Source: a virus
Lineage: Duplodnaviria > Caudoviricetes
Length of the DNA: 24,735 nt
Virus record (IMG/VR): IMGVR_UViG_3300020402_000154
Coordinates: 1 to 24,735 of that record
Direction: 5' to 3' (one strand)
Shown here: positions 7,757 through 21,220 of the stretch, in pieces
How positions within the stretch are numbered: position 1 is the stretch's first letter
Layout: the number at the start of each line of letters is the position of its first letter
Notes under the pieces: model-generated
The model's input: the letters and a program-made list of their open reading frames with translations, nothing else
What the model was told of the DNA's origin: nothing
Database searches by the model: none
Position numbers and translations under genes: made by a program

Positions 7757-7920
7757 TAATCTAAAAAGAAGCTTTGTGCCTCTACCTCTTGTTTTAATTC
7801 TTCTTGAAACGTTGTATTTAATTTTTGTATGACAGCATCAAGATCTCTAACCTGTGCGTCAGCAACATCTTGTCTATACTCTTTACTAGGTCTTGTTAAT
7901 ATCTGTACTATCTTTGCCAT
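7756..7920 (-). CDS. Small hypothetical, coiled-coil-like protein, 54 aa (MAKIVQILTRPSKEYRQDVADAQVRDLDAVIQKLNTTFQEELKQEVEAQSFFLD)
   Basis: Hand-translated; exactly fills the gap with TAATG overlaps at both ends (7920 and 7756); not in the ORF track. Confidence 0.85.
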   Translation of the reverse strand: MAKIVQILTRPSKEYRQDVADAQVRDLDAVIQKLNTTFQEELKQEVEAQSFFLD

Positions 7921-10055
7921 TATCTTCTTCCATCTGGTTGTATGTCTAATCTAAATCCACCAAGTTTCCAGTTTTGAGATGCAGCCGTATTTGCTATCTT
8001 CAAGGACACAGCTCTAGCTCTAGCTCTTGTGTCTACTTTAGTTGTTGATGACGTTACAGTAAACGGACCAAGTGCTGAACTTGATTGTGAATCATTAGAG
8101 TAGTTTCTTAATTGTAATGTAATTTGTGTGTTACCAGTTTGAGATACAAAGTCTGGTATAAATCTTCTTATCTTTGCAAAAAACTCACCGTCACCACCTT
8201 GACTAATATCAAAGTCTCCAGACTCTATGTTAGAAGTTATTGCTGTTGTAGCCGTGGTTGTTACTTGATCTGTGCCAGTCTCATGCTCGTAATAGATTGT
8301 GCAACCATCAGTGTTGCCAACAACATCATAAGAGTTGTTAGAGTCAGCGTCGTAGTCTGTAGCATGTGGTTTACCAAATACAGCAGAGTCTTGCCATGTT
8401 GTTCTGTCTAATGTGCTTGTAGTCCAAACAGGTCTTTGAGGGGTAGATTCAATGTAATTATAAGTTACACATTTATCAATGACTGTTGCACCAGAAGAAC
8501 AGTAGAACCAATTAATCTCACCAAACAAGTTATTAATTCCAGCGTTGATAAGTTGGTTGGCTGTTGTATTTAAATCGTTATAAACAAAATCTTCTACTAA
8601 ACATGGTAGTGATTGTAAGGCACCGGCATATTTAAAGAAACCATTCTCTGAAAACCAATATGCAGCGCCATCTACTTCTACCGCAGCGTTTTGACCTATT
8701 AATCCACAGTTAGTACCTACCTGTGCGAAACCAAATGTAAATGGTGGACCAATAAAACGCATAGTGAATAAGGCAGTGTCAGTCCAGATGTAAATCGCAT
8801 CTCGACCTCTAACCGATCCCATAATTCTGGATCCATCTGCAAGTCTCTGTGTACCAGCAGTATTGGTAGCTGTTGGTGTGTAAGTATTAATATCTTCTTG
8901 ATTAGAAAATCTTATAAACATTTCATCTTGTGTGCTTTGATCACCTATCGTTGTTTCTGTTCCAAAGAAAACTAAGTGTCGATCTGGTGTAGATACAATC
9001 ATGTCTCTTGATGCGGTTGGCGCACCAGAAATAATTGTAGCTCTTGTTGCTGTTGCGTTTGATGCATTTGAGTTCCACTCAAAAACTTGTCCGTTATGTA
9101 TTAAAGCGATAATTTTATCACCAAAGTTATCGATAGACCAAAGACCTGGATCAATTACCAAGTCACCTGATGCAGCTTCACCCCACGCCACAAAGTCAGA
9201 ACTGTTTGTAACTGTTGCACCGTCAGAGTGTGATGCAGCTGTTGTGCCTCTCGCTCCTCGCGTCACGCCTGTTAGTGTGCTGCCTGAGATTCCAGTATAA
9301 GATATTTCTTCTGATCCTATCTGTATGTGATTTGTACCCGTCGATGGAAAGTTAATGACGCTTGTTAAAACTATCGTTGTTGTGGAATCATTGATTGCTC
9401 CATTTAAAGTTGTAGTAAGTGCGTTGGCTACTGTACCACCGAACGTAGCTAGACCCCAACCAAACCCTGGTAGCTGTTCTGCTGGTCCTACAGGATAGTA
9501 GGTTTGAACTCTAATACCACCGGATGTTGTAGCACCTGATCCTGTCTCGTTAGACGGCATGGTAATTGTTATTGTTAAGTTTGTTGGCGCAGAAGTCACC
9601 ATAAATTTATTGTCATCAAAATCTGATGCTGAGTAATTAGAATTTGTAATTGCTGTAAAGTTATCTAATAAGATTATGTCACCAGCGCTAAGACCATGTC
9701 CTGAAGAAAACGTTATAGTTACGATTGCAGATCCGTTAGTTGTGCTGAATGCATTAGTAAGTGTTGTCGTAGATTTAATTGGATGTATGTCATAGAACAC
9801 ACCACCTGAATAAGCATACAATATTCTGTTTGTGCCTATGATTGAAAACTTTTGACCACTTCTATTTACAATATGATGCATAGCTCTAGCTGCACCTGTT
9901 ATTTTATTATTACCTAGTTGCTGCCAGCCACCTATTTTTTCAGGTGTGCCGTATCTAAATCTAACATTATCACCATCAACCCATTGGCCTTCCGCCTGAG
10001 TGTCTGTAAGTTGTTTATTAAAGCCTGGTAAGAACTGTACTTTTTGTAATGCCAT
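7920..10055 (-). CDS. Putative tail nozzle / tail tubular protein B-like (P22 gp10 / T7 gp12-type) protein (711 aa)
   Basis: Beta-propeller-like Trp/Asp/aromatic pattern, N-terminal WVDGDNVRFRYG.PEKIGGW, IRFSNQED motif, C-terminal RLDIQPDGRR; size and position fit a podoviral nozzle. Confidence 0.65.
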   Translation of the reverse strand: MALQKVQFLPGFNKQLTDTQAEGQWVDGDNVRFRYGTPEKIGGWQQLGNNKITGAARAMHHIVNRSGQKFSIIGTNRILYAYSGGVFYDIHPIKSTTTLTNAFSTTNGSAIVTITFSSGHGLSAGDIILLDNFTAITNSNYSASDFDDNKFMVTSAPTNLTITITMPSNETGSGATTSGGIRVQTYYPVGPAEQLPGFGWGLATFGGTVANALTTTLNGAINDSTTTIVLTSVINFPSTGTNHIQIGSEEISYTGISGSTLTGVTRGARGTTAASHSDGATVTNSSDFVAWGEAASGDLVIDPGLWSIDNFGDKIIALIHNGQVFEWNSNASNATATRATIISGAPTASRDMIVSTPDRHLVFFGTETTIGDQSTQDEMFIRFSNQEDINTYTPTATNTAGTQRLADGSRIMGSVRGRDAIYIWTDTALFTMRFIGPPFTFGFAQVGTNCGLIGQNAAVEVDGAAYWFSENGFFKYAGALQSLPCLVEDFVYNDLNTTANQLINAGINNLFGEINWFYCSSGATVIDKCVTYNYIESTPQRPVWTTSTLDRTTWQDSAVFGKPHATDYDADSNNSYDVVGNTDGCTIYYEHETGTDQVTTTATTAITSNIESGDFDISQGGDGEFFAKIRRFIPDFVSQTGNTQITLQLRNYSNDSQSSSALGPFTVTSSTTKVDTRARARAVSLKIANTAASQNWKLGGFRLDIQPDGRR

Positions 10056-10069
10056 AATGAACCATTATA

Positions 10070-10399
10070 CTAATTTTTGGCTAAAAATATAGTCCATTCT
10101 AGCTTGGGAATCAAATCATTTAGGCTAATACGTTTTATCTTATTTTTCTTTATAAATGGAGTCAATTCTTCTAGGTCTAAAATTATCCATTGGTCTTTCA
10201 TTTCTAAAACCATCTTATCTGCTTTTGTATCTATTCGTCCGCTTTGAGCAGGTGTGCCATCAGATAATTCAAACATATCTCTAACATCAAATTTGTAAAA
10301 AGCATTTTGACTTTTTAAAATACCTGCAATATTCCAAGAACATTTTTCTTTTGGATATTCTACAGCTGTAAGATATTCAGAAAATTTTTTAACGATCAT
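10070..10399 (-). CDS. Hypothetical phage protein (109 aa)
   Basis: ATGA-coupled ORF closing the oxygenase array; has no HxD/H...H motif. Confidence 0.7.
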   Translation of the reverse strand: MIVKKFSEYLTAVEYPKEKCSWNIAGILKSQNAFYKFDVRDMFELSDGTPAQSGRIDTKADKMVLEMKDQWIILDLEELTPFIKKNKIKRISLNDLIPKLEWTIFLAKN

Positions 10400-10914
10400 T
10401 TAAATGTATATACCACAACTCTCCTAACACTGTTAATAGGAAAGTAATGATAGTGAAGAACACTGTCAAAAGAAATGGCCTTAAATTCTTCAGGTCTTAC
10501 TATTTTAAAAGGCCTGCTTTTTTTATCTAGAATAACAGTCTCTCCCGAAGAGTTATTTAAATACAATAATAATTGCTTATGTTTATAGTCATGATCTACA
10601 TGCGCAGGCACTCTATCTATTTTTCCATTATTAAAAGTTATGTTAATTGCACATCTAAATATCTCCTTTATTTTAAACTTTTGTTCTTTAGCAAAATTAT
10701 AGAGTATGTCTTCAAACCACTTTTGATTAGGATTTTGATTATAGTAACCCTTATCTTTATTAATTATATGATGTATAAAATGATGACCTCCATCACCAAC
10801 CTCCGCTGCATTTGGCGCCCAATACCAGGGTGTATTAGATTCTTTAGAACAAAACCAATTTAAAAAGTTTTTTTGTTCATCTGATAAAAATGTTTTGCTT
10901 TCTTTATAAAACAT
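10396..10914 (-). CDS. Fe(II)/2OG-dependent dioxygenase-fold protein (no. 12 of array)
   Basis: HVD...LLLYLN..GET...HYH...RRVVVY: HxD...H triad plus distal Arg. Confidence 0.8.
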   Translation of the reverse strand: MFYKESKTFLSDEQKNFLNWFCSKESNTPWYWAPNAAEVGDGGHHFIHHIINKDKGYYNQNPNQKWFEDILYNFAKEQKFKIKEIFRCAINITFNNGKIDRVPAHVDHDYKHKQLLLYLNNSSGETVILDKKSRPFKIVRPEEFKAISFDSVLHYHYFPINSVRRVVVYTFK

Positions 10915-11447
10915 TATTTTTTATTAAATATTAATGTTAAAGTAAATCTGTAACTTGGCCCTGTTATGTTCTGTGCTCTAATCGTATGTGGTATTGATCC
11001 ATCAAAAACAACAAGCTTGTTTGGTTCATACAATGATGTTTGTATTACTTCCGTTTTTGTTTGATTAAAAAATAAAGTCTCTCCCGCCCAGTCTTTTTGC
11101 CAAGTTGGATTTATATAATATACACAAGCAAATTGATCGGAATGTGTGTGAATAAAATTAGGGTCACAGGGTTTAGTTAGATTTACTACAACGAAAGCTA
11201 AATTATCTATTTTACAAAATTTTTTAAAACAAGTCTTATTAATATATTTTTTAAAAGATTTCAAAATACCAAGCTCCTCTACAGCATTTTTATTCCAATG
11301 ACTTCCTAGACAAGGTTGTGTTCTTTTTTCAGGCTCTGCAGTATCGGCCCAACCGATTGTATAATTAGAATTTAAAGCTGCATCGTAAAGTCTATCTTGA
11401 AAGCCTGCTTTAAAAGCATTTGTAAATTTAAAAATTTTATTTTCCAT
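10914..11447 (-). CDS. Fe(II)/2OG-dependent dioxygenase, prolyl-hydroxylase-like (no. 11)
   Basis: IHTHSD...VYYIN..W...WAGET...NKLVVFDGSIPH.IR...RFT; ATG at 11447 preferred to TTG at 11450. Confidence 0.85.
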   Translation of the reverse strand: MENKIFKFTNAFKAGFQDRLYDAALNSNYTIGWADTAEPEKRTQPCLGSHWNKNAVEELGILKSFKKYINKTCFKKFCKIDNLAFVVVNLTKPCDPNFIHTHSDQFACVYYINPTWQKDWAGETLFFNQTKTEVIQTSLYEPNKLVVFDGSIPHTIRAQNITGPSYRFTLTLIFNKK

Positions 11448-11931
11448 CAAAAAAATTAAAGTTGATTACAAACCTGCCTTGTCTCGGGTCTGTATGTCTT
11501 ACGACAGAATGTGGAGTATTCGCAGGCATGATTAACATTCTATTTGCTTTTGATTTAATAATCTTTTTTCCCACCTTAGTGCCTCCGTCATTTGTGTTTA
11601 AATAAAATACAGCAGTGCTTGCATGTTTATAAGTGTAGTCTGTGTGCGTTTCTTCTTCTTTAACACAAGGAAAAGTTAAATTAGCTTTCACTCTAACTAA
11701 ACCAACAGCATGTAGTTTTCTTAAGATTGGATCTATAATATCCATTCTATCTGTATTTACTCTAGTTTTATTTCCATCATCTATTGTATAAAAAACGTGA
11801 GTTAGTTGAGACACACCATCCCAACTATAGCTTGAACTTTTTTGATAAAACCAAGGAAAGTTTGGACTCATCATAATATCTTTAATTGCATTAAAGTTTC
11901 TCTTATCTAAAAAATTATCTATTACTTTCAT
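11437..11931 (-). CDS. Fe(II)/2OG-dependent dioxygenase-fold protein (no. 10)
   Basis: RVKANL...HTD...FYLNTNDGGT...NRMLI...PHS...RFVINFN. Confidence 0.85.
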   Translation of the reverse strand: MKVIDNFLDKRNFNAIKDIMMSPNFPWFYQKSSSYSWDGVSQLTHVFYTIDDGNKTRVNTDRMDIIDPILRKLHAVGLVRVKANLTFPCVKEEETHTDYTYKHASTAVFYLNTNDGGTKVGKKIIKSKANRMLIMPANTPHSVVRHTDPRQGRFVINFNFFDGK

Positions 11932-12448
11932 TTACAAACCTAAATTTAATATTACCTGCTATCGTTTCATTATTAGAATTTTTATGTACACCATGCTTTA
12001 CAAAACTTGGAAAAATTACCATCTGATTATTTCTACATTCTAATTTATACATTGATTCGAATATATTACCTACATTAAAAGATGCAATGAGATCTCTGTA
12101 CGGAGATAAAAAATAAGTTTCGCTTTCCTTTACATTCTTGTAGATAATAAAACTAAAAGTAGAAAAAGGATGTATGTGAGGCTCTTGGTAATCATCTTTG
12201 TTATATTTATTAGTCCATATATTTGTTAAACCTATTTCGTAATTTCTGTACTTTCTATCTAAAGATTTTACTATACAATCCATTAAATATTTTAGTGAAC
12301 TTTCTGTAAGTGTGTTTTTATGAGCGAAAGATGATACCGTTTTACTAATCCAATCTTTTGTAACCGTAATTTTTTGTTCTTTAAATTTAATTTTTTTAGC
12401 ATCTATGTTGGATACAAATATTGGTGTTTCAAATAAATTACTTATCAT
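11915..12448 (-). CDS. TIGR02466-like / 2OG-FeII_Oxy_5-like oxygenase (no. 9)
   Basis: N-terminal LFETPI, W.N.Y....YQEPHIH...FSFIIY...IFPSFVKHGV...TIAGN (HxH...H type). Confidence 0.82.
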   Translation of the reverse strand: MISNLFETPIFVSNIDAKKIKFKEQKITVTKDWISKTVSSFAHKNTLTESSLKYLMDCIVKSLDRKYRNYEIGLTNIWTNKYNKDDYQEPHIHPFSTFSFIIYKNVKESETYFLSPYRDLIASFNVGNIFESMYKLECRNNQMVIFPSFVKHGVHKNSNNETIAGNIKFRFVNESNR

Positions 12449-12449
12449 A

Positions 12450-12944
12450 TTAAAAATAGTTTATGTTTATAGTGCATCTTAAATTTTGATCAGTGCATGT
12501 TGTGCTGTGATGTTCATAGTAAGAATTAAAATGCAATACTCTGTTTGCTTTGCTTTCAACTTTCATATCTTCGTTTTTTAAATATGTGTATCCATCATTG
12601 TCGTTCACAAAAAACAAAGCGCTTTTACATTTAAAGTCTTGATCGGTGTGTAACCCATGTCTGACTATCTTGTGTGTTCTAGGATAAAAGTTAACCTTAA
12701 TTCTTACTAAAGCTTTCACTTTTAAATAATTTAAAATTGGAGCAATAGTTTCACCAAGATCACTAAGCCATCCTTTCGGGTAAGTATAAATATCATGAAT
12801 GTGATAATAACATCCTAAAGAACCATCCTCCGCAAAAGCGACTTCGTTAGCATAAAACATGGGCACACCATGACTACTAAGTAATCTATCTTGTATTTTT
12901 TTAAGTTCTCTAGTATTTAAAACGTTATCTTTTATTCTAATCAT
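12450..12944 (-). CDS. Fe(II)/2OG-dependent dioxygenase-fold protein (no. 8)
   Basis: RIKVNFYPRT...HTD...FFVNDNDGYT...NRVLHF...EHHSTTCTD...R.TININY; ATG at 12944 (MIRIKDN) avoids the overlap implied by the track's 12965 start. Confidence 0.85.
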   Translation of the reverse strand: MIRIKDNVLNTRELKKIQDRLLSSHGVPMFYANEVAFAEDGSLGCYYHIHDIYTYPKGWLSDLGETIAPILNYLKVKALVRIKVNFYPRTHKIVRHGLHTDQDFKCKSALFFVNDNDGYTYLKNEDMKVESKANRVLHFNSYYEHHSTTCTDQNLRCTININYF

Positions 12945-12945
12945 G

Positions 12946-13488
12946 TTAATCAAAAAATAATACAATTACGTATCTAGTATCAAAAGTAAAATCGTGCATG
13001 GCTGCGTGATGCCTGTTTCCATTATATACAACTAATCTGTTTGGATAAGCTCCTATTTGTATGTCTGGATATTTATCCCAACTGTTTTCAAAAAAAGCAG
13101 TGCCTCCATCCACTGTTTGATCGAAACAAAAAACTCCTGCGTAGCCATGAGCATCTTTGTGTGTAAGTCCATACTTTGTGTTTGTTTTTGATTTTAACAA
13201 TTCACTAGTTAATATCTTACGCACAACAACAAATAATTTTTTTGGCTCTCTATCGAACGCCTTAGTTAGTGCTTTTAAAAATATAGAATAAAAAGTTTTA
13301 TCCTCTGCTTCGTAACAAGGATAGGCTTGATATCTATTACCATAGAAAGTATTTTCTGGCTGGTAAGTTTCTTTGTACTTTAATTTTGTAATATTCTTTT
13401 TTACATAATTAAAATCTTTGTTATTTAAAAAATTTGGTTTTATGTAGAAACCACCATCTTTTAAATCTGATAAGTAAAATTTTGTCAT
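12946..13488 (-). CDS. Fe(II)/2OG dioxygenase-fold protein, DUF6445-like (no. 7)
   Basis: HKD...YAGVF...GGTAFF...NRLVVYNGNRHH...R; ATG at 13488 gives TGATG coupling. Confidence 0.8.
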   Translation of the reverse strand: MTKFYLSDLKDGGFYIKPNFLNNKDFNYVKKNITKLKYKETYQPENTFYGNRYQAYPCYEAEDKTFYSIFLKALTKAFDREPKKLFVVVRKILTSELLKSKTNTKYGLTHKDAHGYAGVFCFDQTVDGGTAFFENSWDKYPDIQIGAYPNRLVVYNGNRHHAAMHDFTFDTRYVIVLFFD

Positions 13489-14015
13489 CACATTTTTAAG
13501 AAACAGTTAAGTGTTAATCTACCGTCTTCTATATCCTTTCCATGATTATTTAATGACCTATGCCACAAGTTAGCGTTAAATAAAAACGCTCTGTTTTGAA
13601 CAAAACCCACCGTTGTTGTTGGTTGTTTATTTTCGTCGTAGAGCACAGTGCCAGAACTTAAATTTGTTTTTGAAAGATAAATCATCAGTGTGTGAGTTGT
13701 TCCATCACCAGAATCTTTATGAACCCAGTCATCTTTATCATCTTTATCTAATCTTAAATTAACGGTTGCATCACAATATACAGTGCCTTGTCCCATTCTA
13801 AATTTTGTAAAAAACTCTTTCAATATTAAGTTATAAAGAAAAGGATTATGATCTATCAAAGCTTGGCTTCTCTTACCTGGCCATGCTTCATAATCCATTT
13901 TTGATTTTTTAAATTTCTTGTTGTATTCGGGTAAAGAATATAAAGGTATCTCTTTAAATTTATTTTCAATAAATCTAAAATTATCAAAAAAATTATCTAC
14001 TATTATAGCGTCCAT
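13488..14015 (-). CDS. Fe(II)/2OG dioxygenase-fold protein, DUF6445-like (no. 6)
   Basis: IIVDNFF...WPGKRS...WVHKD...IYLS....SGT...NRAFLF...WHRS...RLTLNCF. Confidence 0.85.
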   Translation of the reverse strand: MDAIIVDNFFDNFRFIENKFKEIPLYSLPEYNKKFKKSKMDYEAWPGKRSQALIDHNPFLYNLILKEFFTKFRMGQGTVYCDATVNLRLDKDDKDDWVHKDSGDGTTHTLMIYLSKTNLSSGTVLYDENKQPTTTVGFVQNRAFLFNANLWHRSLNNHGKDIEDGRLTLNCFLKM

Positions 14016-14576
14016 CTATCTCCATTTTGGTCCACCTACAAATATTGCTAGCGTCCTTCTTTCTCCTTTTGTAACGGGTTCTACTTTATGAAAAACCCAT
14101 GGTCTTAGCACAATCATATTACCAGGTTCATTAAATAAATCTACCTTATGTTCTTCACCATTAAAAAAATATTTAAAATCTCCTCCCTCATATTTCTTTT
14201 GCGAAACATTTATTAAGATAGTGCTTTTAATATCCCAGTTACATGTAATATCTTGAGCATCAACGTGATAACCATAATCCGATTTATCCTTATGATCGTA
14301 TACATTTAAATTAATAAAAACATTGTCGTTCATTTCAAATGTATCAAAACCAAAATCACGATTGATATGATACAAGGCTCCTTGATAACAGCCATGTAAA
14401 TATTTTTTTATTTTACCCCAAGTAATTTGATATACTTTGACATTTTTTAAAAGCTTTCCATCTAAAGTTTTAGCACCTTCAGTATCAACATCGGTTCTAT
14501 CATAACTAGATTCTATATGATTGTTTATCTCTTTAATTTGTTTGTTATTTAATTTATTTTTAAAAAGTATAATCAT
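14016..14576 (-). CDS. Fe(II)/2OG dioxygenase, prolyl 4-hydroxylase/PKHD-like (no. 5)
   Basis: YGYHVD...K....IN.S...YEGGDF...HKVEPVTKGERRTL...GPKWR. Confidence 0.9.
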   Translation of the reverse strand: MIILFKNKLNNKQIKEINNHIESSYDRTDVDTEGAKTLDGKLLKNVKVYQITWGKIKKYLHGCYQGALYHINRDFGFDTFEMNDNVFINLNVYDHKDKSDYGYHVDAQDITCNWDIKSTILINVSQKKYEGGDFKYFFNGEEHKVDLFNEPGNMIVLRPWVFHKVEPVTKGERRTLAIFVGGPKWR

Positions 14577-15139
14577 ATTAAACTCACATTAAATGCTACA
14601 CTAATCCTGTCCTGACTTGATCTACTTGGCTCAACTAAATGTACTAAGGTGGAGGGAAACAGTATAAGTTTATTATCCTCTGGAGTTATTCTATAATTAA
14701 TCCAACCTAACGGATCATCTATGTACTTATATAGATTTGTAGGATCTGAATTCTCTGGACTATTTAGAAACAACACATCACCAGAATTCTTTTGTGCTTT
14801 AATGTACCATATTCCAGAAAACTGAACTGTGGGTCCAACGTGATTATGTGGCATATTATAATCTGCTACAAAGTTTTGATTTACCCAACAACTTTGAATT
14901 ACAATTTTAAAGTCTTTAACTTTTTTAAATTGTGAAATATATTTGTGTAAAGGTTCTTTCCAACAATCTTTTATTTTAAATGGGTTTACAATTTCAGTTT
15001 GAACTCCGCCTATATTTGAAACCACACCTGTGTGTCCTAAACTTTTACATTTTTCTAAATGTTTAATAAAAATATTTTTATACTTTTTACTTTCGTACGG
15101 TGTTATGTATATGGGCGTTCGATGTATATCTATATTCAT
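14573..15139 (-). CDS. TIGR02466-like / 2OG-FeII_Oxy_5-like oxygenase (no. 4)
   Basis: SNIGG.Q...WVNQN...YNMPHNH...FSGIWYI...LILFPSTLVHLVEP...RISVAFN. Confidence 0.9.
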   Translation of the reverse strand: MNIDIHRTPIYITPYESKKYKNIFIKHLEKCKSLGHTGVVSNIGGVQTEIVNPFKIKDCWKEPLHKYISQFKKVKDFKIVIQSCWVNQNFVADYNMPHNHVGPTVQFSGIWYIKAQKNSGDVLFLNSPENSDPTNLYKYIDDPLGWINYRITPEDNKLILFPSTLVHLVEPSRSSQDRISVAFNVSLI

Positions 15140-15780
15140 TTTATCTTTATATAATTTTTATTTACTTGATATGTTGATAAATCAAAAGCTACAGATATTC
15201 TTTCTTGAGTATCGATTTGTTTATCTGTGCAATGAGGTATACATGTTTGAAACAAAGTTAATTTTCCAACTTCATTTAAACTTTCATATTTTATAGGTTC
15301 ATTGATTTGATTTTGTGGATTAACATATATTGTTTTTGTGTCTTGACATTGAACCATTAGATTACCACTAAGATAAGTATCTGGACTAGTTCCGTGTATA
15401 TGTAGTTTTATTTTTTCTCCTTTACGCATAACATTAAACCAAGATTGAATCCAAAGTTCTTTTGGTATTTTAATTTTATAATATTTTAAAAACATCTCGT
15501 GTGCTTTTATTACTGCTTGTTTTATTTTATTTATCTCCTTATTTTTAAACGTAAAAATATTAAAACTATTAAATCTTGCTGTAACACTTTTTTTACCTAA
15601 TCCTGTATATCCATCATTTATGACAGAGGTATTCTTTATTATTTGTTTTTCTTTTTTCAAAAGATATCTACTTAAAGATTTAAAATTAATTTCTTTTAAA
15701 ACTTGTTCTGCCAACGTATATTCCCACTCAGGAGCGAAAGGTGTCTCTCTTGGTTCACTCTTAAAAAGTATGAATTGCAT
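15136..15780 (-). CDS. TIGR02466-like oxygenase (no. 3)
   Basis: WFNVMRKGEKIKLHIH...YLSGN...G.LTLF...IPH.TD...RISVAFD. Confidence 0.85.
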   Translation of the reverse strand: MQFILFKSEPRETPFAPEWEYTLAEQVLKEINFKSLSRYLLKKEKQIIKNTSVINDGYTGLGKKSVTARFNSFNIFTFKNKEINKIKQAVIKAHEMFLKYYKIKIPKELWIQSWFNVMRKGEKIKLHIHGTSPDTYLSGNLMVQCQDTKTIYVNPQNQINEPIKYESLNEVGKLTLFQTCIPHCTDKQIDTQERISVAFDLSTYQVNKNYIKIK

Positions 15781-16398
15781 CTACTTTATTACAGATCTAG
15801 GCAATCCAAACGAAGGTCTTTTATCTCTAAAATGATCGGCATGCTTTCCATTTTTCTTTACATAGTGTAAAAACACTTGACTACATTCTTTCTTTTTAAA
15901 CTCTTCTCTCCAATGTTGTAATTTAGTTCCTTTGTATATTAACATATCACCACATTTTAATTCTACTTTAATTTTTTTATTTTTATCTTTTAAGTATATC
16001 GGCCACATATCTCCACCCATATTAACTGTGCAAGAAATTTCACAGCTTGGTCTATCTTTATGTTTCTTCAACTCAGCTCCCGTTTCATAAATTCTTGCAT
16101 AAGCATAGCAAGGAAGTAGCTTCATTTTTGTTCTTTCCTCCATTAAAGGATGTGCCATAAGAAGTAATGTTTCCATTGCATTATCACCATAAACAGAAAA
16201 ATTACCTGGAGCTTGTGGGTCTTCCCAAGTTCCGAACCAGTTTTTAATATGCACAGATAAAGGTCCAAAGAAATTATCTGTGTTACGTAGAATATGCATT
16301 GCATTTCTTTTAATCTTTAAAGCGTGATTACAAAAATCCATTAACTCTACCGCAAAAGCTTGTCTTATAATTATATAGTCTTTATTTTTTAAACTCAT
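15781..16398 (-). CDS. Fe(II)/2OG dioxygenase-fold protein, HKDRPSCEIS type (no. 2)
   Basis: YARIY..GAELKKHKDRPSCEISCT...WPI...GDMLIYKG..LQHWRE...QVFLHY. Confidence 0.85.
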   Translation of the reverse strand: MSLKNKDYIIIRQAFAVELMDFCNHALKIKRNAMHILRNTDNFFGPLSVHIKNWFGTWEDPQAPGNFSVYGDNAMETLLLMAHPLMEERTKMKLLPCYAYARIYETGAELKKHKDRPSCEISCTVNMGGDMWPIYLKDKNKKIKVELKCGDMLIYKGTKLQHWREEFKKKECSQVFLHYVKKNGKHADHFRDKRPSFGLPRSVIK

Positions 16399-16979
16399 CT
16401 AAAAGGATCTCCTGTTATCCATGCAACTAAAGAGAATCTTTCTCCCTTAGTTACTGGGGTTACTTCATGTAAAGAGAAACTAGGAAACATAATTAATGTT
16501 CCTTGATCTCTTATTGTTTCAATAGGATCTTCACCATCATATAAATGTAAATCTCCACCTTTATATTTGTTTGGATCAGATAATTGAATACTTACTGATA
16601 GTTTTCTGGTTGTACCATTCATGCCTCTATCAATATGCTTTCCATATTTTTCTCCTGGAGCTTTATAATGTGTGAATTGTAAACCCTCAGAAAAAGAGGA
16701 AATATGAAAATTATAAAAATTCTCATTTAGTTTTAAAACTGCATCTGTCATTTGTTGAAATAATTTTTCTAGATTATCTGTGTGATATAAGAATACAGTA
16801 GAAGACTTTCTAAGTTTTTTATTTAATTTACCACCTGCTCCAAAACCTACCATGGCTTGTTTCATACCTTTCTTTTTTCCAATCCTAATTATCTCTTCAC
16901 ACTTTTCAGGAGATAAAAAATTTTTTACATATGCAAAGGGTGGAAACGTGTCTATTCTTAATGGCCATACTTCTCTCAT
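16395..16979 (-). CDS. Fe(II)/2OG dioxygenase, prolyl 4-hydroxylase/PKHD-like (no. 1)
   Basis: LQFTHY...YGKHID...RKLSVSIQLSDP..YKGGDL...FPSFSLHEVTPVTKGERFSLVAW. Confidence 0.92.
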   Translation of the reverse strand: MREVWPLRIDTFPPFAYVKNFLSPEKCEEIIRIGKKKGMKQAMVGFGAGGKLNKKLRKSSTVFLYHTDNLEKLFQQMTDAVLKLNENFYNFHISSFSEGLQFTHYKAPGEKYGKHIDRGMNGTTRKLSVSIQLSDPNKYKGGDLHLYDGEDPIETIRDQGTLIMFPSFSLHEVTPVTKGERFSLVAWITGDPFR

Positions 16980-17004: not shown

Positions 17005-17388
17005 TTATCCGTATACTCCGTCGTGTTTTATCCATGTTTGAGTTTCTTCATCCCAAGAATACTTAGGTCCTACTGTGCCAGGGCCAGTTGCATCATCAGG
17101 GATTGGTGTTGGTGGCACCCACTCACAATTTGATTCGTTTAATGTCCATGATGGATATGGTTGTGGTGAATGAAATCCATTTAAATCTTCTCTGTAAATC
17201 CAATCTACTGCTGCTCTAGATAATTTTGGTTGACCTGGAACAATTTTAATAAATCTTGTAGTTGGCTCCTTATGGATACCTCTTAAATAAGCTTCTCCAC
17301 CTTCTTGAGTTGCTCCGTTTTCTGGGTCAACCATTTCGGCGTTAACTACTATGTTATTTTCGTTTAATCTGCAAAATGTAAATGCCAT
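17005..17388 (-). CDS. Small Pro/Trp-rich protein, possible fibre-associated/assembly factor (127 aa)
   Basis: PQPYPSW.L.E....W.PP.P.P...YSWDEETQTW; SD-like GGAAAAGGA upstream; immediately follows the Gly-rich gene. Confidence 0.55.
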   Translation of the reverse strand: MAFTFCRLNENNIVVNAEMVDPENGATQEGGEAYLRGIHKEPTTRFIKIVPGQPKLSRAAVDWIYREDLNGFHSPQPYPSWTLNESNCEWVPPTPIPDDATGPGTVGPKYSWDEETQTWIKHDGVYG

Positions 17389-17405: not shown

Positions 17406-18275
17406 TTATGGTGTAAACGTTGTACTCGCTGTAAACTGAATTATACTATAATCTCCATCCGTTGTCACGTTAGTTGCTGGTGCAGGAAATCCTGCTGGAT
17501 TTAAATCAGCTGTTAACATTCTTATAAAAACTCCTCCTGATGCGCCTGGATATTTGTCTGGTCTTCCACCACAACCTCTTCCACCAAAATATGAAACAGA
17601 AGCTTTTTGATCACTCCATGGTGGTGAGTATGGACCTAAAGGCATACCACCTTGCGCTGCAGGTCTTTGACCTGTGTTTTGATTTCCGTTACCACCTGCA
17701 CAATAATAAATAGATGTGCCTGTAATATTGTTGGCTTCTCCGCCTCCGCCACTTTGTTGTGTTCCAGCAGCACCTTTTCCGCCGCCATAGCCACCTCTAG
17801 AGTTTGAGTGAAATCCACCTCCTGGTCCTCCAGGGTTTCCTTGGTTAGTTGTTCCGTTACCGCCTGTTTGAGGAGGAACGTTTTGTCCTCCGCCGCCACC
17901 GCCAGATCCTCCGGGTTGTCCTGGAAAACCTCCTCGGCCTCCAGCACCTCCATAACCGCCGCCGCCAGCGCCTCCGCCAACTGCAGTTGTTAATCCCGTA
18001 AATCCTGAATCTCCACCTTGACCACCTTGGTGATAAGGTTCTGGGCCGCCACTATCTGGCCCTGGTGCTCCAACAGTTACTGTGTAATCTGTTCCTCTGT
18101 CTAACAAGAGAGATGTTCCAGAAACCATACCTCCTGCTCCTCCACCTGCGCCTACGTAGAAGCCGCCGCCTCCACCGCCGCCGGTAATTAAGTAGTCTAC
18201 TGAAACAGGGCCTTTTCCTCCAGAGAAACCAAATCCTCTTACTGCCGCTGCTCCGAATGATCCTAGTATTGGCAT
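17406..18275 (-). CDS. Glycine/proline-rich protein, putative distal fibre / receptor-binding subunit (289 aa)
   Basis: DYLITGGGGGGG...GAGGGAGG, many GGxGG and GxPG units, N-terminal MPILGSFGA; GGAGG SD upstream; locally GC-rich. Confidence 0.7.
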   Translation of the reverse strand: MPILGSFGAAAVRGFGFSGGKGPVSVDYLITGGGGGGGFYVGAGGGAGGMVSGTSLLLDRGTDYTVTVGAPGPDSGGPEPYHQGGQGGDSGFTGLTTAVGGGAGGGGYGGAGGRGGFPGQPGGSGGGGGGQNVPPQTGGNGTTNQGNPGGPGGGFHSNSRGGYGGGKGAAGTQQSGGGGEANNITGTSIYYCAGGNGNQNTGQRPAAQGGMPLGPYSPPWSDQKASVSYFGGRGCGGRPDKYPGASGGVFIRMLTADLNPAGFPAPATNVTTDGDYSIIQFTASTTFTP

Positions 18276-18293: not shown

Positions 18294-19397
18294 TTACGCG
18301 AACTGCGTTTGTGCTGCGAGCGCTGTAAAAGCAGCGTCCCCAGTTTTAAAAATCGTGTACGTGTAAACGTCAATCGAACTTGCATTTCCAGCTGAAGGTG
18401 CTGAACCACCTTGCCATTCTGGAGTTACTGAAGATCCATCAATAGTTACTGCATTATTGTAGTAAGGTGTTGAACCTTGAGTTACTAAGTGAGCAATTGT
18501 AATCGATTCACCTGTATCCATAATACTGTTTAACGTGTTTGAACCATCACCTCTAATGTTTAGAGTGTAGTTAGCTGCAGCGTTAGATGTAAAATATAAA
18601 ACAGCTTGAGTGATTACGTCAAAGTTGACTGTACCCGTAGCTGCAGTTGCTGCTATTGTAGCTTTTTCTGTTAGCTGTTGAATCGCACCAGCGCCTAAAC
18701 TTACTCTTCCTAAACCTTTTCCAGCGATACTTAAATCAACATTAGTGTCTCCACCAGTTGCAGTTACGCTTGGCGCGTTGCCTGTAGCTGCGTTTGTTAC
18801 ATCAATTTGGTTTACTGCTGATGCTGTTGTTTGAAATATAATTTGTTCGTTTCCATTTTCGTCTCCGATAAAGTGTGCATCATCAATTAAAATGTTGTTG
18901 TCATTAGTATCTAGATTTCCACCTAATTGAGGTGTTGTATCTTCAACAACTGATTTGATACCTGTGTTAATAGTTAAAATTTTTGGGTTAGTTCCATCGT
19001 CTGCAGAAGCAAAAACTAAGGCATCGCCTTTGTTTGTTGCAGAGAAAGTGAAAGAATCACCTGATCCAGTTATATATTTAAATTGTACTGTGTATGCACC
19101 CGACGTTGAATTTCTTAAAAAGTAAAAAGTTTGAACATCTAAAGGTATTGTTACAACTTGGTTTCCTGTAATTGTACCTGTAAACTCAATCATTCTGTGA
19201 GAAAGTTCTGCACCAGTTGATCCATCAGAAACTGCTAAATCAGTTTGTTGTGCTCCACCAGCAATTGATTTTTGAATAAATCCACCAGATATTTGTTCTA
19301 AAATTTGTAAATTGGTATTGGTTTTTGTTCCCCACGTTCCCGCGTTTTCACCGGTTGCTTGAAGTTCTACTCCTAAAGGTGTGTATGTTGAAGCCAT
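18294..19397 (-). CDS. Putative tail fibre (proximal) protein (367 aa)
   Basis: N-terminal MASTYT..GVELQATGENAGTWGTKTNTNL, central DTTPQLGGNLDTN, C-terminal W.GG.AP...IDVYTY; AGGAG SD. Confidence 0.65.
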   Translation of the reverse strand: MASTYTPLGVELQATGENAGTWGTKTNTNLQILEQISGGFIQKSIAGGAQQTDLAVSDGSTGAELSHRMIEFTGTITGNQVVTIPLDVQTFYFLRNSTSGAYTVQFKYITGSGDSFTFSATNKGDALVFASADDGTNPKILTINTGIKSVVEDTTPQLGGNLDTNDNNILIDDAHFIGDENGNEQIIFQTTASAVNQIDVTNAATGNAPSVTATGGDTNVDLSIAGKGLGRVSLGAGAIQQLTEKATIAATAATGTVNFDVITQAVLYFTSNAAANYTLNIRGDGSNTLNSIMDTGESITIAHLVTQGSTPYYNNAVTIDGSSVTPEWQGGSAPSAGNASSIDVYTYTIFKTGDAAFTALAAQTQFA

Positions 19398-19417: not shown

Positions 19418-21220
19418 TTACGCAACATCTGTATAGCTAGTATTTGAACCTGTGTCAATACTTTGATATGCCTGAATTCCAAAGCCTGATGAAGTTCCAA
19501 AAGCAGCTACATTTGACGTTGCTGATAATCCAGTTAACGCTAAATCTAAACTTGTGTCAACTGATAATGTTCCTATACTAAACGTTGCAGACAATCCAGT
19601 CAAGCCCATAATATCAGCAGGCGCTAAAGATCCTACACTAGAAGTCATGCCAAATCCATTTGGTATAATTATAGGATTTGAAGTCTCGTCCGTGGAACCT
19701 AAAGAAATAGTAGCAGAAACACCAGTTATATCATAAGCCGTTTCTATGACTACTGATCCAACAGAAGATGTTGCACCTACGCCTGTTGGAACCATTACGT
19801 CTGTTGCAATCACTGATCCAACAGAAGACGTCGCTGACTGACCAGTTAAAGTTAAAGAAACATCACCAACTATTGTAGGCGAGCCTAAACTTGATGTTCC
19901 AGAAACTCCTGTAACTCCCATTACATCCGCAGGAGATAATGAGCCGACAGAAGTTGTTGCTGATTGTCCTGTTAATAATACGTCACCTTGTATACCCCAA
20001 GCATCATCATTCCAAGCAGCTCTGCCCCAACCAGTGTTAATCTCTCCTGTCGCTGTAACTGTTCCAATGCTTGTTGTTAAACCAATACCTGTTAACTCTA
20101 AGGATGTATCACCAACTTGTCCCCATTCACCTTCGTTCCAAAATCTACCACCCCAACCTTTTTCGTTAAAAGCCTCTAAACTTCCAACGGAAGATGTCAT
20201 TGATAGGCCAGTTAAAGTTAAAACAGGATTATTACTGTCGCCCCAAGATTCTGAGTTCCAAGTATTTCTACCCCAACCATTTAATGTATAAGATAAAAGA
20301 CCTGCAGCATTTAAAGATGTTGTTAATCCAAGTCCTGTTAATTCAACGCCATTGTCTGTAACTGCGCCCCACTCACCATTACTCCAAGTAGTTCCACCCC
20401 AACCTTGGGCAGGCACACCCATGTTTGTCCCATCACCAACGGAAGAAGTTGCTGATTGTCCTGTAACTGAAACTGAAACAGTGTCTTGAGCACCCCAAGA
20501 GTTATAATTCCAACTTAAAAGACCCCAAGTGTTTGAAGTTGGAGTGTTTGCTTGTCCACCCATACCTGAGTGATTGGTGCAATAATAATATAAAGTTGGT
20601 GCGGAGGCTGCGACTGTAATTTGTGTGTACGCTCCAGCGCTCCCTGGCGTTCCATTTGTGGTTACACCGGTAGTATATTGAGAGCCACCGCCGTGTGTTC
20701 CATCACTGGTCGTTGAAAATCTTAAAGGGTGATTGCTATTTGAAGAATCAGACTGATCAAAAATATAAGTATAACCTTCACCTAAATTAACAGTGTCTTG
20801 TTGCACGCCATCGATAGCATATTTATTTCCAGAGCCAGTAGAAACAACTGTTACTGCAAGCGTTCGAGAATAACTACTTATGGGAGTGTTAGCTTGTCCC
20901 CCCATGCCAGAATGATTAGTGCAATAATAATATAAAGTTGGAGCGGAAGTGGCTACGGTGATTTGCGTGTACGCTCCAGAACTTCCTGGCGTTCCGTTTG
21001 TGGTTACACCTGTTGTGTATTCAGATCCACCACCATGCGAACCATCTGATGTTGTAGAAAATCTTAACGGGTGTGAACCGTTTGATGAATCGGATTGATC
21101 GAAACGATAAGTTCTACCTTCAGCTAAATAAACGGTATCTTGTTGAACACCGTTAATAAAATATTTATTACCAGAGTCGGTGCTAACAACCGTTACTGTA
21201 TAAGTTCGAGCAACGGACAT
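19418..21220 (-). CDS. Thr/Ser/Gly-rich virion protein with two tandem cupredoxin-like N-terminal domains and Trp-Gly repeats (600 aa)
   Basis: 114-aa-period duplication ending in YYYCTNHSGMGG; five W-G-x3-W-x4-W-G repeats; repeated TG.SATSSVG units; GGGAGG SD. Confidence 0.7.
   Translation of the reverse strand: MSVARTYTVTVVSTDSGNKYFINGVQQDTVYLAEGRTYRFDQSDSSNGSHPLRFSTTSDGSHGGGSEYTTGVTTNGTPGSSGAYTQITVATSAPTLYYYCTNHSGMGGQANTPISSYSRTLAVTVVSTGSGNKYAIDGVQQDTVNLGEGYTYIFDQSDSSNSNHPLRFSTTSDGTHGGGSQYTTGVTTNGTPGSAGAYTQITVAASAPTLYYYCTNHSGMGGQANTPTSNTWGLLSWNYNSWGAQDTVSVSVTGQSATSSVGDGTNMGVPAQGWGGTTWSNGEWGAVTDNGVELTGLGLTTSLNAAGLLSYTLNGWGRNTWNSESWGDSNNPVLTLTGLSMTSSVGSLEAFNEKGWGGRFWNEGEWGQVGDTSLELTGIGLTTSIGTVTATGEINTGWGRAAWNDDAWGIQGDVLLTGQSATTSVGSLSPADVMGVTGVSGTSSLGSPTIVGDVSLTLTGQSATSSVGSVIATDVMVPTGVGATSSVGSVVIETAYDITGVSATISLGSTDETSNPIIIPNGFGMTSSVGSLAPADIMGLTGLSATFSIGTLSVDTSLDLALTGLSATSNVAAFGTSSGFGIQAYQSIDTGSNTSYTDVA
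20540..21208 (-). repeat. Tandem intragenic duplication (two copies of about 327 bp, period 342 bp)
   Basis: aa 5-113 (21208-20882) and aa 119-227 (20866-20540) are near-identical; shared DNA such as gcaataataatataaagttgg and tgtggttacacc occurs in both copies. Confidence 0.95.

Follow-up and report, generated by a model that had tools for sequence, protein, structure and literature searches.

Twelve tandem Fe(II)/2-oxoglutarate-type oxygenase genes behind a glycine-rich phage fibre gene: a proposed fibre-tailoring island

2-Oxoglutarate (2OG)-Fe(II) oxygenases and homologues of tryptophan (Trp) halogenases are common 'auxiliary metabolic genes' (AMGs) of marine phages. The articles cited in this text were accessible in part, and statements on them refer to these parts. 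For Syn9 ten tandem dioxygenases were described and an action on host secondary metabolites was proposed (Iyer et al. 2010, PMC2938197). In the same work, glycine-rich and tail-collar proteins co-encoded in bacterial beta-hydroxylase/sulfotransferase operons were predicted to be hydroxylated and then sulfated. Eight co-located 2OG families together with 'ferrochelatases' were reported for HTVC023P-type pelagiphages (Wittmers et al. 2022, PMC9599517). The S-SCSM1 paper of 2022 lists 24 such genes with a metabolic reading and states that their viral function was not specifically investigated (PMC9602691). Further studies add that mutation of a 2OG gene accompanied adaptation to a host and that genes of this kind are found within structural variants (PMC6224464, PMC12379486). 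Here, we report on an array of twelve genes of this type (O1–O12) in a viral DNA stretch of 24,735 nucleotides (Caudoviricetes, IMG/VR record IMGVR_UViG_3300020402_000154), in the following called the window.

The window is a whole contig and contains the minus-strand virion module of a phage. As its nozzle-like protein shows the best matches with 023Pt_psg01, HTVC027P and HTVC023P (44–48% identity), the phage is assigned to the HTVC023P-type podoviruses. Its host is probably SAR11/Pelagibacter. With the gp41-gp54 array of Syn9 the window shares at least ten tandem, mutually distant dioxygenases behind glycine-rich genes, which belong to at least five families including the gp52 and gp54 types. 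O2 corresponds to gp54, O6 resembles gp52, O8, O10 and O12 resemble gp51/gp53, and O3, O4 and O9 resemble gp47/gp48. Hence, the array type is already known. In contrast to the window phage, Syn9 is a T4-like myovirus, and its array contains halogenase, JmjC and dUTPase-fold genes, whereas none of these is found among the twelve window genes and no flavin halogenase or JmjC gene in the window island. The bacterial operons follow the same logic of hydroxylating a glycine-rich protein, but with other oxygenase families and as a prediction without residue covariation. With the AMGs of Wittmers et al. the window shares lineage and locus, and their 'ferrochelatase' is the O2 family. There the genes were said to lie close to each other without being adjacent and were read as iron-related, whereas O2 is oxygenase-like here and the block is tied to a fibre gene. 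No report of fibre modification by these enzymes or of covariation was returned by a literature search that covered few subscription papers. New is the residue-level evidence for a substrate; the array itself belongs to a known type, of which it is a large representative, here in a podovirus lineage.

A first-pass annotation had described twelve open reading frames (ORFs) of 164–214 amino acids (aa), each with an HxD or HxH motif and a distal histidine. This description proved correct. Numbered in reading direction, O1–O12 are consecutive minus-strand ORFs (10396-16979) with an intergenic spacing of -20 to +1 nt. The GC content of the array is about 27–32%, compared with 37–49% in the fibre genes. 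In searches with hidden Markov models (HMMs) all twelve proteins matched PHROG families 61, 81, 274, 2954 or 1644; Pfam models for 2OG oxygenases or DUF6445 matched seven of them, six above cut-off. The metal triad was found in 12/12 proteins, with HxH in O3, O4 and O9, and is conserved among homologues (for O7 only one homologue, for O11 in an ambiguous register). Ten proteins have the distal arginine, which is missing at its usual place in O2, family-wide, and in O9. The Pfam matches of seven proteins point to a double-stranded beta-helix fold; for O2, O10 and O12 this fold would be assigned from motifs and PHROG family. Judged from these signatures, the array consists of intact Fe(II)/2OG-type oxygenases.

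Recent tandem duplication was ruled out as origin of the array, as DNA self-comparison revealed no internal repeat and pairwise identity among O1–O12 does not exceed 38% (alignments of at least 40 aa). At least half of the words of the window were present in 20 of the 24 metagenome runs listed, from 7 studies, and 14/14 gene junctions were bridged by contigs from runs without possible-source flag. An assembly chimera is thereby excluded. The same applies to gene decay. Among the 45 best-supported variant positions listed, 30 are synonymous, 15 non-synonymous and none is a stop (33% synonymous expected for transitions); no indel was detected in the array at 96% likeness. The array genes are under purifying selection. 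For O3, O5 and O6 individually, non-synonymous variants outnumber synonymous ones among the variants listed. Thus, neither of the two objections foreseen in the first-pass annotation, chimera and decay, applies. No RNA run holding the window was found among the runs listed.

Residue-specific post-translational tailoring of the phage's own receptor-binding, glycine-rich fibre is the explanation we prefer, with a probability of roughly 0.7. It is likely because the enzymes present track the amino acids of the fibre across related viruses. The enzyme families track particular fibre residues, and they do so in none of the neighbouring protein sets tested. Furthermore, the island directly follows the genes of the fibre tip and its small partner and is relocated together with them. 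The earlier suggestion of a dedicated multi-enzyme tailoring system instead of scattered AMGs or DNA modification is partly supported, and the evidence names a likely substrate; purity and size are not defining.

If the enzymes modify the fibre, its composition should depend on the enzyme content. In a discovery set of 39 complete loci fibre histidine was at 1.4% in the presence of a halogenase and at 0.5% in its absence (one of 39 tests, p 7.7e-5). Fibre proline was 6.3%, compared with 2.4% in the glycine-rich fibres of 12 phages without detected oxygenase. The set was extended by O2- and halogenase-anchored loci, and fibres with at least 80% identity were merged. The histidine difference was replicated in the new loci alone (1.14 vs 0.56%, 27 vs 22 loci, p 2.4e-4). 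In total, 81 dereplicated complete islands were used, all of which contain an oxygenase. Their oxygenases were clustered, and 17 families or enzyme classes present in 5–76 loci were screened. With F2, a TIGR02466-like HxH subfamily, fibre cysteine reached 1.49%, without it 0.19% (37 vs 44 loci); cysteine was present in 37/37 F2 loci, whereas 26 of the 44 others had none. Histidine was 1.24% with halogenase, found in 33 of the 81 islands, and 0.55% in the other 48. Proline was 6.85% with the O2 family and 4.18% without (72 vs 9 loci). By permutation (17 x 20 tests) the family-wise error rate (FWER) was <0.0002 for F2-Cys, <0.0002 for halogenase-His, 0.004 for O2 family-Pro, 0.019 for F5-Arg and 0.031 for F4-Asn. 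The negative links F2-Glu, U7-Leu (FWER 0.0006) and halogenase-Cys passed as well.

The links were also examined in 380 tests by phylogenetic generalised least squares (PGLS, threshold 1.3e-4), for which the fibre tree comprised 60 single-domain loci. F2-Cys was confirmed in 11/11 pairs (PGLS p 8e-14), halogenase-His in 22/22 pairs (p 1.5e-6) and F4-Asn with 9 up and 3 down (p 5.9e-5). As controls, 24 tests were made on six other protein sets of the same loci (X127, FIB367, FIB600, nozzle, T143/adaptor and the oxygenases), and each gave p >=0.065. Among further F2 loci with fibre, not dereplicated, 25/26 have at least 0.54% cysteine. F2 is present in HTVC023P, HTVC033P and psg01 and their adjacent fibres contain 1.1–1.8% cysteine; HTVC008M lacks F2 and its fibre has 0%. 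Syn9 has two halogenases, and the histidine content of its fibres is 1.9–4.1%. The window fibre with 2 Cys, 2 His and 23 Pro is as the pattern predicts for a genome without F2, F4 and halogenase.

Conserved disulfides behind the cysteine link are not supported, because the 90 fibre cysteines are scattered over 61 alignment columns and show no even-number bias; sister sequences mostly have Gly, Ser, Thr or Pro at these columns. The fibre histidines are mostly flanked by glycine. No significant link with fibre residues was found for the presence of carbamoyltransferases or sulfotransferases. For fibre Pro, Tyr, Gln and His no relation to the number of oxygenases was seen; this number rises with fibre arginine (rho 0.35, PGLS p 0.025). 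The first rank of the window among 60 for pooled R/Y/F/Q/D/H/W results from a post hoc grouping and was not used as evidence. U7 (L006:6408-6911 and relatives), which gave the negative leucine link, is TIGR02466-like without the metal histidines and directly follows the X127 homologue in many islands. It is possibly a catalytically dead adaptor.

The linkage to the fibre gene was investigated in 161 loci from nozzle- and FIB367-anchored scans, two cultured phages and the window; 55 span both anchors, and some are duplicates. Family HMMs built from the twelve window proteins detected 436 oxygenases, 433 of them within the FIB367-nozzle island. The three others are HTVC023P gp65-67, which adjoin the glycine-rich genes of this phage. 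In O2-anchored loci the recurring order is glycine-rich gene, small partner and then O1-, O4- and O2-type genes. Where FIB367 is displaced behind the block, the oxygenases still follow GLY and X127. Adjacency behind a glycine-rich gene was also found in HTVC033P, the T4-like HTVC008M and Syn9. In six loci with a LamG/DUF7483 fibre (two identical, three found through that fibre) no oxygenase precedes the nozzle gene, and this association needs three changes on a nozzle tree of 64 rows.

The comparison of size and content at this locus gave a divided result: the window holds the most oxygenases, but its pure content is not typical of its relatives. Among the loci with both anchors the window has 12 oxygenases and the other 54 have 0–9; the 80 other complete islands with an oxygenase hold 1–9 each. 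In the island ORFs of relatives (one representative per cluster scanned) 21 Trp-halogenase-like, 12 carbamoyltransferase and 10 sulfotransferase sequences were detected, as well as APS kinase, methyltransferase and a few JmjC proteins. The purity of the window array is a quirk, as relatives interleave halogenases, carbamoyltransferases and sulfotransferases. The position between fibre genes and nozzle-like gene was described correctly for the unbroken twelve oxygenases, but a 13th island gene, Y109, precedes the nozzle gene.

The proposed substrate GLY289 contains 31.8% Gly, 8.0% Pro, 0.7% Cys and 0.7% His. Its proline content is higher than that of glycine-rich fibres of phages without detected oxygenases. 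A sequence search against the PDB gave no match. With its AlphaFold2 (AF2) model, whose predicted local distance difference test score (pLDDT) is 79.5, only two of 48,161 chains were found at Z >=8, the Pam3 fibre 7ypx_A (Z 10.9, root-mean-square deviation 3.5, 165 aligned) and the Bxb1 tail-tip chain 9d93_Qa (Z 10.6). The ALK glycine-rich domains (GRD) reached Z 5.4–5.5. On the basis of this model GLY289 is a tip of the gp38/Pam3 gp24 type, with a glycine-rich lattice domain on a beta domain, and a putative receptor binder. According to the description of the Pam3 domain, its glycine-rich motifs form a lattice resembling S16 gp38, with a possible role in receptor recognition (PMC9942802). GLY289 shares the Pam3 fold, and the likeness to S16 is taken from this article, whose accessible part makes no mention of enzymatic modification.

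The twelve genes would thus form the enzyme half of a fibre module. Each oxygenase subfamily would act on one residue type in exposed loops and strands of the fibre tip. Late synthesis in catalytic amounts may be expected, and the enzymes may act on the fibre chain while it is assembled or before. O1 and O2 are candidates for the hydroxylation of proline. For relatives an oxidation of fibre cysteine by F2 is predicted; three-His sites occur in thiol dioxygenases. Flavin halogenases of relatives might halogenate fibre histidine, and carbamoyl- and sulfotransferases might cap the new hydroxyls. The altered surface chemistry could tune receptor binding or particle stability, and fibre and enzymes would in consequence be swapped and tuned together. 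With somewhat more in its favour than against it, a generalisation can be made: abundant marine phages would modify their receptor-binding fibres after translation with a modular toolkit, in which oxygenases, halogenases and transferases can be exchanged and every enzyme is paired with one fibre residue. A residue, then present as oxidised Cys, halogenated His or hydroxy-Pro/Asn/Arg, would accumulate in the fibre only together with its enzyme, for which the odds appear similarly a little above even.

Expression data are available for HTVC027P, whose island genes gp72-74 match the O9-, O1- and O4-type HMMs. They are classed as Late with final mean transcripts per million (TPM) of 611, 863 and 361, whereas the adjacent collar-fibre gene gp70 reached 14,385 and the capsid 74,585 (Table S3, PMC12753301). 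No early or middle rise was observed for gp72-74. In the window X127 and the array could be transcribed from a putative sigma70-like promoter located within the 3' end of GLY289; its position is not conserved (1/84 loci). Such sites were found before the first oxygenase in 15/120 loci and before 2/430 inner genes. Near-consensus sigma70 promoters also precede FIB367 in 37/104 loci (window match 18593-18622). The sites were therefore rejected as a sign of early expression. The promoter matches suggest that host-type promoters drive these late units.

Several points weigh against fibre tailoring. All evidence is comparative, and no modified residue has been observed. As F2, F4 and halogenase are missing from the window genome, it is relatives that provide the two strongest links. 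Among its own enzymes only the proline link of the O1 group and O2 applies; ten of twelve are without an assigned residue. The groups of O3–O12 were too rare to test or without link, and those holding O4, O8/O10 and O12 show no significant positive one. Both proline links just miss the Bonferroni threshold, O2-Pro with PGLS p 2.6e-4 (5 up, 1 down, 8 negative loci) and the O1 group G0 with p 2.9e-4, where only four loci lack G0. The 11/11 and 22/22 pairs were counted by a pairing of our own, for which every branch of a quickly built tree was used; if only strongly supported branches are considered, the halogenase test comprises 7 pairs with a median p of 0.125. Halogenase-positive and -negative replication loci came from different anchors. 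Exceptions exist: L361 has F2 and no fibre cysteine, L191 has a halogenase and no fibre histidine, and Syn9 gp36 contains 2.5% cysteine without F2. In HTVC027P the featureCounts command had no strand option, and the 'Late' signal may partly be antisense read-through; thus, only the lack of early and middle expression is safe.

Distribution adds further objections. Glycine-rich fibres without detected oxygenase occur in 12 loci of other phage groups, as judged by our HMMs and by reading, not by Pfam scan. Modification is therefore not needed for the fold, and obligate maturation of such fibres is ruled out. Fibre types other than GLY are also accompanied by oxygenases. In L208, a T4-like contig, O1- and O2-type genes lie between uvsY and uvsW. 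Standalone O2/gp54 homologues were found in alphaproteobacterial metagenome-assembled genomes (MAGs; L189, L193, L198, L201, L205, L206), adjoining pirin and flavodoxin-fold genes in the two loci scanned, which indicates a cellular use of the family.

An alternative is a mixed or indirect explanation, in which only core families act on the fibre and most of the rare oxygenases of the window are passengers in a recombination hot spot or have other substrates, or in which host or habitat selects both the enzymes and the fibre composition without direct chemistry. The lack of a residue link for ten of the twelve window enzymes, several of which are near-singletons, the variant pattern of O3, O5 and O6, and the high variability of the island speak for it. 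We regard it as unlikely, since the recognised island content is almost exclusively of the tailoring type, the links are residue- and protein-specific, and the oxygenase number rises with fibre arginine.

Less probable still is a halogenated or hydroxylated secondary metabolite or a decoration of host capsule or lipopolysaccharide, as proposed for cyanophage clusters (Iyer et al. 2010; Iyer 2021). In its favour, enzymes of these classes typically serve in the tailoring of natural products, and at one bacterial locus genes of this kind are found together with a TonB receptor. However, no scaffold-building enzyme was recognised in the islands, and this proposal predicts neither the fibre-specific covariation of Cys, His and Pro nor the fixed adjacency to the fibre gene and the absence with LamG fibres.

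Auxiliary metabolism by 2OG drain, succinate production or iron handling with the 'ferrochelatase' was proposed earlier (Sullivan 2010) and echoed for pelagiphages. This is very improbable. One enzyme would suffice, whereas twelve with low mutual identity are present, and no early or middle expression peak occurs in HTVC027P. The 'ferrochelatase' label of O2 is not supported: the family has an invariant HxD...H motif and no Pfam match, and its profile found no PDB ferrochelatase at E 1.

DNA base modification or repair (TET/JBP, AlkB, endonuclease V), to which the label of phrog_274, a non-significant profile match of O2 to a Tet-like dioxygenase (E 0.47) and the fact that some phage carbamoyltransferases modify bases might point, is the least probable explanation, as 0/12 proteins matched a TET_JBP or AlkB (2OG-FeII_Oxy_2) Pfam profile at E 0.05, the genes are late ones of a tail module and the covariation is specific to the fibre. 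The missing glycosyltransferase and nucleotide-metabolism genes, used as an argument in the first-pass annotation, carry little weight because the contig comprises only 24.7 kb; cultured relatives carry a glycosyltransferase beyond the nozzle gene.

For fibre tailoring, the covariation yields named predictions of enzyme, residue and protein: HTVC023P gp66 or HTVC033P gp60 with fibre Cys, Syn9 gp41/gp42 with gp38/gp39 His, and the gp54 family with Pro. A long-open question thereby becomes testable on cultured phages by mass spectrometry. If the proposal is true, many 'metabolic' 2OG oxygenase and halogenase genes of ocean phages would encode virion-maturation enzymes, and adhesin chemistry beyond the 20 amino acids would be a host-range mechanism and an extra layer in host-range evolution. 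The protein-modifying set would include candidate His halogenases and a Cys-directed three-His oxygenase, and the 12-gene island would be the most elaborate toolkit found in the lineage.

Table 1 Coordinates and assignment of the array genes and neighbouring features in the window
Feature	Position	Strand	Description	Residues and matches
Sigma70-like promoter match	17440..17468	-	putative; 3' end of GLY289	11/12
FIB367	18294..19397	-	conserved tail-region protein, upstream anchor	PHROG match; no residue link to enzymes
GLY289	17406..18275	-	glycine-rich fibre-tip/adhesin-like, proposed substrate	Pfam Gly_rich_2 E 8.5e-12
X127	17005..17388	-	small partner gene after glycine-rich fibre genes	phrog_7759
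O1	16395..16979	-	PKHD/prolyl-4-hydroxylase-like oxygenase	H115 D117 H171 R181; PF13640 E 2.8e-16
O2	15781..16398	-	Syn9 gp54 family, annotated 'ferrochelatase'	phrog_2954; H113 D115 H162
O3	15136..15780	-	TIGR02466-like, HxH	H127 H129 H183 R194; PF13759
O4	14573..15139	-	TIGR02466-like, HxH	H98 H100 H167 R178; PF13759 E 7e-13
O5	14016..14576	-	PKHD-like oxygenase	H104 D106 H163 R173; PF13640
O6	13488..14015	-	DUF6445/Syn9 gp52-like oxygenase	H99 D101 H152 R166
O7	12946..13491	-	DUF6445-like oxygenase	H111 D113 H162 R173
O8	12450..12965	-	phrog_274 (labelled 'endonuclease V'), Syn9 gp51/gp53-like	H106 D108 H152 R163
O9	11915..12448	-	TIGR02466-like, HxH, no distal Arg	H91 H93 H152
O10	11437..11931	-	phrog_274 family	H96 D98 H141 R153
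O11	10914..11450	-	2OG-FeII_Oxy_3-like	H101xH103 or H103xD105, H155, R168
O12	10396..10914	-	phrog_274 family	H105 D107 H154 R164
Y109	10070..10399	-	island gene without known family	no Pfam, PHROG or NCBIfam match
Nozzle-like virion protein	7920..10055	-	downstream anchor	48% identical to HTVC027P/HTVC023P homologues

The individual oxygenases differ in the matches obtained (Table 1). O1 resembles peptidyl prolyl 4-hydroxylases (P4H) and PKHD enzymes by sequence, with PDB matches to PiuC/PKHD and to P4H including algal and Bacillus enzymes (E 2e-12 to 3e-4), but scores below the NCBIfam cut-offs. O2 matches Syn9 gp54 with E 1.6e-30. For O4 no F2 score was obtained, and it does not belong to the Cys-linked F2 subfamily. 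The Atlas model of O7 gave template modelling (TM) scores of 0.75–0.76 to clusters partly carrying 2OG-FeII_Oxy_3/5. The true start of O8 is probably a downstream ATG. Its AF2 model contains a confident beta-rich domain (pLDDT 90.1), and the fold assignment is based on secondary structure and motif; the profile matched a HIF prolyl hydroxylase weakly (E 0.086), and the comparison of the O8 and O2 family profiles was also weak (probability 28%). The label endonuclease V is not supported for O8, O10 and O12, which have no Pfam match and whose family retains H-x-D...H...R. For O11 the match to FlmC was far below the cut-off, a literature search gave nothing relevant, and this candidate was discarded.

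Regarding the neighbouring genes, homologues of X127 follow glycine-rich genes across many phage groups, and its Atlas matches are unnamed viral clusters only. From this setting we infer that X127 might be a fibre-assembly chaperone. Homologues of Y109 are conserved in relatives, often between oxygenases and in varied positions. A 600-aa tail protein is encoded at 19418-21220. Its N-terminal domain is present twice and matches tail-fibre PHROGs of cyanophages; Trp-rich G-W motifs recur in the protein.

Further observations were made in related islands. U9 (L096:6904-7662; Syn9 gp43) comprises about 250 aa without Pfam or NCBIfam match, lies also within the Syn9 array and follows a short glycine-rich fibre type in 5/6 complete loci. 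A second fibre type (L059, L110, L117, L120, L228, L257) shows propeller-like repeats by reading and no Pfam match. A partner of 226 aa and a recurring O4-O1-O4-O2 set accompany it, frequently together with a sulfotransferase; F2 and halogenase are absent in all such loci listed. In L092:10654-12147 a sulfotransferase gene is followed by genes resembling adenosine 5'-phosphosulfate (APS) kinase and cytidylyltransferase, which looks like a self-contained supply of 3'-phosphoadenosine 5'-phosphosulfate (PAPS) in the island. L370 and L371 are halogenase-bearing phages of another group, whose glycine-rich genes encode 12–15 histidines each. On the Pelagibacter MAG contig L188 (9048-11920) an oxygenase island is followed by FecR and CHASE2-cyclase genes.

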